Positions 33,001 through 36,000 of a stretch of 64,000 nt of DNA are shown here, in pieces. Origin of the DNA: Escherichia coli O127:H6 str. E2348/69 (GTDB lineage Bacteria > Pseudomonadota > Gammaproteobacteria > Enterobacterales > Enterobacteriaceae); assembly GCF_000026545.1 (NCBI RefSeq), contig NC_011601.1, one strand, 5' to 3'. The number at the start of each line of letters is the position of its first letter. Position 1 is the stretch's first letter. Made by a program: the position numbers.

Positions 33001-36000
33001 CGGACGCCCCACCAGGTTGAGGATATCGCCGAACTGCAGGCTGATATCGCTACTTGCAACTAATTCAACACCAGCACGATTCAGGCGCGAGATAACAACG
33101 TCATAGCGTTCTTTAAAGTGCAGGTCGCGAATACGTTTACCGAGCACGTTTTCATTGGTGACCACCACACGCTCGACGCGCAAATCAGTGCCTTTCGTAG
33201 ACAGCGAGGTATCGACCTCCTGACCAATCACCAGTTGCGCATTATGTAAATCCGCAGGCTGCCCCACCAGATGCAGCAAATCGCCCAGTTGAATAACGGT
33301 TTCTGGCGAAGGCACTTTTAGGGTTTCTTCTCGTTTCAATCGTGAGCAAATAACTTTATCGCCATTGAGAATCGGCACATCTTTAATGGCTAAATTATGC
33401 AAATTAGGATTCTCAACTCGGATGTTAATCGTCCTGATTAGCGCACCGCCGTTGGTTCGCGTGGACTCGTGCTGCTGGGCCTCAGTCTCAACATTGACGC
33501 GGAAAATAACCCGCAGCATCCACATAGTGAACAAAATGCCGCAAATCCCAAATGGATACGCCATCGCATAGCTCATCCCCATTTGATCGACCATCGCCAT
33601 CGGTGTCCCCAGGTCGCGCAAGATCTGCTGCCCTGCCCCCAGCGCTGGCGTATTGGTGACCGCGCCGGAAAAAATCCCCAGCACTACCGGCAGTGGAATA
33701 TCAAACAGTTTATGCAGGATGGCGGTAACCAGACCACCGATGATGACGATCAGAACAGCAAACAGGTTGAGGCGTAATCCGGAGACGCGCAATGAGGCAA
33801 AGAAGCCCGGCCCTACCTGAATCCCGATGGTATAAACGAACAGGATCAGGCCAAACTCCTGAATAACATGCAGCATATCGCTACTTAATGTCATCCCCGC
33901 CTGAGAAACAAAATGGCCGACGATGATCCCACCGAACAGCACGCCGCCAATGCCCAATCCAACACCGCGAAACTTGACGTTGCCGATAAACAACCCGACG
34001 ACCGCCACCAAAGCCAGAATACTGACCGTTAATGCTATATCACTCATCGTCCATTTCTCTTGAAATAACATTTTAATTGCTACGGATTATGGCTGAATCG
34101 GTGAAGCAGATTTGCCTTATAGCGCACATTATCACGGGAAAGAACGTGCCGAAATATCTTAAACAGGCGGAATTTAACGCATTGTCGAAGAAAAAAGACA
34201 AAAAAAGCCCCACCAGAATGGCGGGGCAAAGAGAATAGCTAATTAGCTATTTAACGCGGGACGTTCGCTGATAGCGATACGCTGCGCTGCGATGGGTTCA
34301 GGCTCGTTACGAATTAAATCAATATGCAGTAAACCGTTTACGAAGGTTGCGCCAGAGACTTCCATATTTTCAGCCAGCGTAAAGCTCAGGCTAAAAGGCT
34401 GATTCATAAGCCCTTGATGCAGCCATTTTTTCTCTTCTTTTGGCTGCTCTGGCGTGCCTTTTACGCTCAGGCGCGTACCTTCCAGTTGAATCTCTAAATC
34501 TTCCTGACGGAAACCTGCCAGCGCAAGGGTAATGCGGTAGTGGTTATCGTCGCTTTTCTCAATGTTGTACGGCGGGAAGCTCTGGCTTTCACCGGCGTTT
34601 TGCAGTGCGTTGGCCAGTTTGTCAAAACCGATCCATTGACGCATCAGTGGGGATAAATCGAAGTTACGCATAGTCATTTCTCCTTCTAAGAAGCGAGTAA
34701 GTACCTGCAAATCCGAAGATTCGCATATGCTCCCTGACGGCGAGCATGGAGATGTCAGGCCGCGCCAGGCGGCCTTAGGGAATTAGTTGATTTCGATGCG
34801 GCGCGGTTTTTTCGCTTCCGGAATCACGCGTTCGAGATCGATATACAGCAGACCATTCACCAGGTTAGCACCACGAACATGAATGTTCTCAGCTAACTGG
34901 AATTTACGTTCAAAGTTGCGTTCAGCGATGCCCTGGTACAGATAGGTGCGCTCTTTTTGTTCGTCGGCGTGAGCACCTTTCACCACCAGCAGATTATCCT
35001 GGGCGGTAATTTCCAGTTCGCTCTCAGCAAAACCAGCCACAGCGATAGCAATGCGGTAATGGTTTTCGTCTACCAGTTCAACGTTATACGGAGGGTAGCC
35101 GCCATTACTCTGGCTCTGGTTGTTTTCTAAGTGGTTAAACAAACGGTCAAATCCAATAGCAGAACGGTAAAGCGGGGATAAATCAAAGTTACGCATAATC
35201 AATAGCTCCTGAAATCAGCGAGAATCTAAGACCTTCCACAATGGACAGGTCAGGTAGCCAGAACACCCATCAGGCGCGTCCTCATCGGCTACGATGTAAA
35301 AATGGGTCTGGAAATGAACTTTTCAAGCCTTATCAGCGGACTTTTTTTGCAGTTTATGGTCTATTGCATAGACTGAGGGGGCAGCACGAAACGTTAAAGT
35401 GCGATAGCCGCCACAGTGCGACGTAATGATGATGTTATTTTCAGCAAGGGATCGCTATAACTCATCAGGCCAACACCCACGATCAACAGATGAATTTATT
35501 ATGATAAGAAATGTGTTGTTAGCGTTCATGATATGCAGCGGAATGACATTACTCGGAGGATGCTCCAGCGTGATGTCCCATACCGGGGGGAAAGAAGGAA
35601 CGTATCCTGGCACCCGCGCCAGCGCAACCATGATTGGCGACGATGAAACCAACTGGGGCACAAAATCGCTGGCGATACTCGACATGCCATTTACCGCAGT
35701 ACTGGACACAATATTGCTACCGTGGGATGTGTTCCGCAAAGACAGCTCAGTGCGCTCGCGCGTTGAAAAAAGCGAAGCCAACGCACAAGCCACCAATGCG
35801 GTTATTCCACCGGCCAGAATGCCTGATAACTGATTTAGCGATCAGTTTCGGTGATCCACAACTGACCGTCCTCCATCCACGCCAACCATTGACCATCCGG
35901 CGAGAAAACCACGGCGTCCGCAGAAGGTGGATTGGCGTGGTTTTCGGTTAAATACTCAACCTCGCCGCTTTGCGCATGGGCACAAGCAATCCGATTATCC

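Follow-up and report, generated by a model that had tools for sequence, protein, structure and literature searches.

The ibpAB control region of Escherichia coli E2348/69: a conserved sigma32 promoter and a ROSE-like leader upstream of ibpA

The region upstream of ibpA in the 64-kb stretch of Escherichia coli DNA analysed here (the window) is almost certainly the canonical ibpAB control region with its three described layers, that is, a sigma32 promoter, a ROSE-like RNA thermometer and self-repression by IbpA. What an earlier note on this DNA had observed is correct and the reading it gave is supported; the element is not new, however, and RefSeq annotates it at the same coordinates. The present analysis itself contributes the sequence identity, the match and the conservation of the promoter, the match to the Rfam model ROSE_2, evidence of covariation for hairpins I and II, and an order of the three hairpins by stability. 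The functional steps, thermosensing and self-repression, are carried over from E. coli K-12 because the leader is near-identical to the leader of that strain.

The ibpA-ibpB operon lies on the minus strand of the window. Downstream of it follows yidE, and upstream lies the divergently oriented yidQ (35501-35833, plus strand). The open reading frame 35196-34783 is 100% identical to the RefSeq IbpA of E. coli E2348/69. The 801 bases compared around the element are also 100% identical to this strain, and they find a match in 5419 of 5426 complete E. coli genomes. The RefSeq annotation of E2348/69 carries ibpA and a sequence feature named 'ROSE' which maps to positions 35262-35190 of the window. 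A 61-aa antisense open reading frame (35241-35426, plus strand) was dismissed; RefSeq does not annotate it. The coordinates of the features are collected in Table 1.

Table 1. Features of the ibpAB control region, in coordinates of the 64-kb window
Feature	Coordinates	Strand	Remarks
A7 tract (A8 in K-12)	35341..35347	-	upstream of the -35 element; possibly UP-element-like (putative function)
sigma32 -35 element CTTGAAA	35321..35327	-	exact; conserved across species
Spacer AGTTCATTTCCAGA	35307-35320	-	14 nt, between -35 and -10
sigma32 -10 element CCCATTTT	35299..35306	-	
Transcription start, putative	35291..35293 (~35292)	-	6-8 nt downstream of -10
Hairpin I (stable)	35254..35292	-	-18.5 kcal/mol at 37 °C
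Rfam ROSE_2 (RF01832) match	35190..35262	-	model positions 1-73 of 73, no truncation
Hairpin II (stable)	35230..35251	-	-10.2 kcal/mol at 37 °C
G allele (C in K-12)	35226..35226	-	lowest Rfam pair 35226:35200 becomes G.G, flagged in the cmscan alignment
Hairpin III (SD hairpin, presumed thermolabile)	35206..35222	-	-4.1 kcal/mol at 37 °C, the weakest; Rfam consensus structure
ibpA CDS	34783..35196	-	137 aa + stop codon; ATG 35196-35194; WP_001243437.1, small heat shock chaperone IbpA
ibpB	34671 to 34243	-	
Intrinsic terminator after ibpB	34227-34207		

The earlier note had placed a near-consensus heat-shock promoter about 100 nt upstream of ibpA. The motifs are exactly as quoted there, and the ATG lies 103 nt downstream of the end of the -10 element. 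The consensus of sigma32 (RpoH) is said to have been given by Nonaka and colleagues in 2006 as CTTGAAA, N13-15, CCCCATNT. Read against the sigma32 consensus, the -10 element is ACCCATTT, and it is combined with an exact -35 element and a 14-nt spacer. The ibpA promoter thus resembles the E. coli sigma32 consensus promoters in the -35 element, in the spacer length and in the -10 sequence aCCCATTT; it has an A for the first C of the CCCC run, which is no material difference. The pattern CTTGAAA-N13-15-CCCATNT has a single match in the window and none in 100 dinucleotide-preserving shuffles. Even if two mismatches are allowed, the promoter is the sole site in the window, with about two sites expected by chance. 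No sigma70-like promoter was found in a scan of positions 34000-36000.

For the comparison between species 86 DNA stretches were retrieved from a one-genome-per-species collection by means of the exact 19-mer TTCTCGCTGATTTCAGGAG. Five of these are chance matches in unrelated taxa without a downstream ibpA start, and about 80 are enterobacterial ibpA loci in which the protein start MRNFD(L/F)SPLYR follows. When 80 enterobacterial ibpA upstream regions are aligned, six of the seven positions of CTTGAAA are invariant and the remaining one is nearly invariant; the -10 core is likewise invariant or nearly so. Among the 81 related loci, 70 could be scored by a regular expression. The spacer measures 14 nt in all 70 of them and the -10 element reads CCCATTT in 59. 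Since its two motifs are near-invariant in the species alignment and the spacer is fixed at 14 nt, the promoter is, as judged from its sequence, real and conserved.

Transcription probably starts at about 35292, and the compensatory pairs at the base of hairpin I reach 35291/35290. The supplements of a genome-wide study of transcription starts have no entry for a mapped start of ibpA, and the start therefore remains a predicted one. A start at 35289, which would follow if G71 of PMC2896394 is the bulged G of the leader, was rejected; it would lie 10-11 nt from the -10 element, and the covarying pairs at the base of hairpin I speak against it. Further upstream, 80 of 81 enterobacterial ibpA loci have a run of six to nine A residues that ends 12-16 nt (mode 14) before the -35 element. 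Counted from the putative start this tract is located at about -49 to -55, the position expected of a UP element. Strains of E. coli differ in the length of the tract.

The leader had further been taken for the region of the ibpA RNA thermometer, and the match to Rfam bears this out. ROSE_2 is matched over its full length and with 96.6 bits, well above its gathering score of 65 (E = 3e-22 in a 2-kb search and 1e-20 in the search of the whole window). The match ends at codon 3 of ibpA; as membership in the ROSE family requires, it lies in the 5′ UTR of a gene for a small heat-shock protein of the alpha-crystallin type. ROSE elements have two to four hairpins with the SD in the 3′-proximal one. 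Here the 99-nt RNA from 35292 to 35194, with a leader of ~96 nt, is predicted to fold into three hairpins (MFE -34.1 kcal/mol, z = -2.15 versus shuffles), the last of which contains the SD. In this hairpin III the SD AGGAG (35210-35206) is paired with the anti-SD CUC-G-CUG (35222-35216) around the loop AUUU. The ROSE motif UCGCU is found at 35221-35217, and G35219 is bulged opposite the SD both in the Rfam consensus and in the MFE structure. Thus the UCGCU motif, the bulged G and the weak SD hairpin, which are the hallmarks of ROSE, are all present. The suggestion that the SD pairs with an upstream U-rich sequence is right about the pairing but not about the partner, which is the ROSE motif UUCUCGCU, rich in pyrimidines and with a bulged G. 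A U-rich tract would describe the fourU thermometers; the ibpA anti-SD instead has the motif U(U/C)GCU, by which the ROSE family is defined (PMC3669281).

If the bulged G is deleted in silico, the energy of hairpin III changes from -4.1 to -7.9 kcal/mol. According to PMC2896394, deletion of a G numbered 71 abolishes thermosensing. We infer that G71 is the bulged G of hairpin III, and the calculated change in energy would fit the reported loss of thermosensing.

On the 80-species alignment, which comprises 79 distinct leaders, 89.6% of the cells of the three-hairpin structure are standard pairs, as compared with 31-50% in a control with the 3′ partners shifted by 1-3 columns. Covariation scores 0.260 for the structure itself and 0.035-0.076 for the shifted versions, and changes on both sides occur in 18 of 32 pairs. 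In the upper stem of hairpin I seven of nine pairs show compensatory changes (94.1% of cells paired), and in hairpin II four of nine do so (95.6% of cells paired). An independent prediction by RNAalifold from this alignment contains the upper stem of hairpin I as well as the SD hairpin with the bulged G. G.U pairs are frequent at covarying positions and are compatible with the minus strand alone, which identifies this strand as the one that is structured. As the loci were picked by an exact 19-mer of hairpin III, all six of its core pairs are bound to be invariant among the 79 distinct leaders, and hairpin III is without covariation support in this set. The lower Rfam pairs 35226:35200 and 35225:35201 are 66.5% paired, and A-U, C-G, U-A and U-G are all seen there.

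The leader was folded at 20-50 °C with several 5′ and 3′ boundaries. For the RNA ending at the AUG, the probability that SD and anti-SD are paired is 0.99 at 25-30 °C and 0.95-0.96 at 42-45 °C. A sharp melting between 30 and 42 °C is not predicted for this RNA, as a paired SD, with a probability of 0.99 at 30 °C, still has one of 0.96 at 42 °C. Once 9-45 nt of coding sequence are included, the canonical SD pairing has a probability of 0.06-0.67 and is often the minority conformer, since helices with the first codons compete with it. In several of these contexts the probability of SD pairing even rises with temperature. The earlier note had proposed folding at two temperatures as a check, with an SD unpaired at low temperature as the outcome that speaks against a thermometer. 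The SD is indeed paired at low temperature when the RNA ends at the AUG, and to this extent the thermometer is not refuted; a melting transition, however, does not appear, and the result depends on the boundary. Since the prediction varies with an arbitrary 3′ boundary, thermodynamic folding as modelled here cannot confirm or refute thermosensing. Consistent with this, a Vienna-based study (PMC2896394) gives an opening rate of the ibpA RBS which is not significantly different from that of ordinary mRNAs. ROSE hairpins are described as relying on non-canonical pairs (PMC3669281). Such pairs are outside what nearest-neighbour models represent. Folding of the SD at two temperatures should therefore not serve as a decisive test for similar findings, since it fails to confirm or refute even the validated ibpA thermometer.

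We suggest that the region would operate in the following way. The sigma32 (RpoH) promoter would drive heat-induced transcription of ibpAB from about 35292. The resulting leader of about 96 nt would act as a ROSE-like thermometer, in which the stable hairpins I and II are followed by the weak hairpin III that masks the SD. At low temperature hairpin III would limit the binding of the 30S subunit, and it would open gradually as the temperature rises. The structured leader would also be the target of the self-repression of translation by IbpA, until IbpA is titrated by protein aggregates.

For the strain studied here, thermosensing and self-repression would follow by analogy with the published K-12 experiments, from which heat-dependent melting, the ~4-fold translational induction and IbpA-mediated repression are taken. 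A fusion of the K-12 ibpA leader to bgaB behind a temperature-neutral promoter gave 14 Miller units at 25 °C and an about 4-fold induction at 42 °C, as stated in PMC3669281. With a leader-gfp fusion, overexpression of IbpA leads to repression, and aggregation-prone proteins or the loss of DnaK/J lead to de-repression at constant 37 °C; weakening any of the three stem-loops compromises the repression by IbpA, and a strengthened SL3 abolishes expression (bioRxiv 10.1101/2020.04.20.050740; PMC10474464; PMC10410725). The authors regard repression by IbpA as a 'safety catch' that backs up a leaky thermometer (bioRxiv 10.1101/2020.04.20.050740).

These experiments also bear on a different view of the leader, namely that it is mainly an operator or stability element for IbpA which senses aggregation, with only a minor role for thermosensing by hairpin III. 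Such a role would account for the repression of ibpA-leader reporters by IbpA at constant 37 °C, for their de-repression by aggregation-prone proteins or by deletion of dnaKJ, and for the disturbance of IbpA control by mutations in any of the three stem-loops. It would also agree with the modest thermal induction, which is published as only about 4-fold, with the in silico melting, which is shallow and indistinguishable from that of ordinary mRNAs, and with the strong conservation and covariation of hairpins I and II, though these do not contact the SD. Thermosensing and repression by IbpA are, however, not exclusive, and the authors cited above combine both in their 'safety catch'. Moreover, the ROSE hallmarks are all present in the leader, and the K-12 leader is thermoregulated in reporter assays according to the literature. 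We consider an operator with little thermosensing unlikely, although by no means far-fetched. Quite different is the case of the view that the promoter-like motif and the hairpins are chance features without function. The folding energies would be compatible with it, as the z-score is a modest -2.15 for the sense strand and a similar -2.68 for the antisense strand. But the promoter motif is unique in the window and absent from all shuffles, promoter and leader are conserved in 80 species with compensatory changes, the covarying G.U pairs fit the minus strand only and the Rfam match has an E-value of 3e-22. The data on conservation and covariation have already refuted an origin by chance, and the probability that we would still assign to it is negligible.

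The preferred reading, a sigma32 promoter with a ROSE-like leader, also has to be weighed against a possible effect of the single base which differs from K-12 between the -35 element and the ATG. This is G35226, which is C in K-12. The exact 61-mer with G is present in 1103 of 5417 complete E. coli genomes (~20%) and the one with C in 4272 of 5417. We take E2348/69 to belong to phylogroup B2. In the other Escherichia of the species set, namely E. albertii, E. whittamii and Escherichia sp. E1V33, the position is C or T, which suggests that G arose within E. coli. In the 80 aligned leaders the column holds 36 A, 22 C, 18 T and 4 G; it is only weakly constrained, as it is variable between species. 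One could suppose that G35226 materially changes or disables the thermometer, either because the lower C-G pair is lost or because an alternative fold pairs the start codon instead of the SD. The lowest Rfam pair does become G.G. Furthermore, with 21-45 nt of coding sequence the canonical SD pairing at 30 °C is less probable for G than for C (0.16 vs 0.57, 0.35 vs 0.64 and 0.11 vs 0.26), because a competing helix with codons 4-6 can accommodate G35226 in a G.U pair. In silico, CGC of the anti-SD is paired with GCG of AUGCG in this helix, too. Yet for the RNA ending at the AUG the energy is -34.1 kcal/mol at 37 °C with either allele and the pairing probability is at least 0.95, and with 9 nt of coding sequence the ranking of the alleles is reversed. 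The variability of the column and the incomplete pairing of the lower Rfam pairs also speak against a material effect, the occurrence of the G allele in about 20% of the complete E. coli genomes argues against a damaging change, and nearest-neighbour predictions are unreliable for the ibpA thermometer. It thus appears quite improbable that the thermometer is materially changed or disabled. Likewise we see only a slim chance that the exchange of C to G may, as in the models, shift the folding of the leader towards the alternative helix with the first codons.

The ibpB leader contains a predicted hairpin CUC-G-CUUC/GAAGGAG (34680-34697, minus strand) which would mask the SD of ibpB across a bulged G, an architecture like that of hairpin III of ibpA. 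It fits the published ibpB thermometer of the same operon (Gaubig et al. 2011). Compared with the ibpA element it is separate, shorter and located downstream of ibpA. No Rfam ROSE model matches the ibpB leader at an E-value of 1 or below. Three further hairpins are predicted in the ibpA-ibpB intergenic region (34706-34775, minus strand). One of them is a GC-rich stem, GGCCGCC...GCGGCC, right behind the ibpA stop codon; no T-run follows it. This predicted stem may have a role in processing or stability or act as a partial terminator.

A sigma54 promoter has reportedly been found upstream of ibpB. With up to two mismatches to the consensus TGGCAC-N5-TTGCA we find no site upstream of ibpB (34700-34800), and the 17 matches in the whole window are fewer than the 25 ± 5 expected by chance. 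Several Rfam sRNA models (anti-hemB, Hrs1, PrrF, ncS54 and GcvB; 17-25 bits) gave sub-threshold matches at 34199-34340 on both strands. These were rejected as terminator look-alikes, as all of them fall on the intrinsic terminator of ibpB. Elsewhere in the window AsdA, an antisense RNA of the dnaA mRNA (RF02674), is matched over its full length at 52463-52543 (plus strand; 99.7 bits, gathering score 52), and the sRNA ES036 (CssrF) has a borderline match at 46950-46986 (plus strand; 38.3 bits, gathering score 37.6).

The element shares the gene and the three-hairpin leader with the ROSE-like thermometer of E. coli K-12 ibpA (RF01832), which is credited to Waldminghaus et al. (2009, RNA Biol 6:455). 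The SD/anti-SD hairpin, the UCGCU motif and the bulged G are the same as well. The differences are the G for C at 35226, at the base of hairpin III, and an A-tract upstream of the promoter which is shorter by one A. With ROSE1 of Bradyrhizobium japonicum (hspA) and the short ROSE of Pseudomonas ibpA (RF00435 and ROSE_3, RF02523; PMC3669281) the element has in common the 3′-proximal hairpin masking the SD, the U(U/C)GCU motif, the imperfect pairing and the location upstream of a small heat-shock gene. In contrast, the upstream hairpins differ in sequence, and the number of hairpins is four in ROSE1, two in Pseudomonas and three in E. coli ibpA. The SD hairpin matches ROSE_3 only weakly, with 24.6 bits, which is below the gathering score of 43; the element is therefore assigned to the enterobacterial ROSE_2 subfamily.

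In summary, the value of the region as a discovery is small, since the ibpA promoter, the ROSE-like thermometer and the self-repression by IbpA are all established. Between the -35 element and the ATG it deviates from K-12 solely by an allele that is common in nature and occupies a position under weak constraint. If an effect of this allele on the folding of the leader is true, G35226 could alter the basal repression, the thermal set-point or the sensitivity to IbpA self-repression, which would amount to a lineage-specific tuning of a textbook thermometer.
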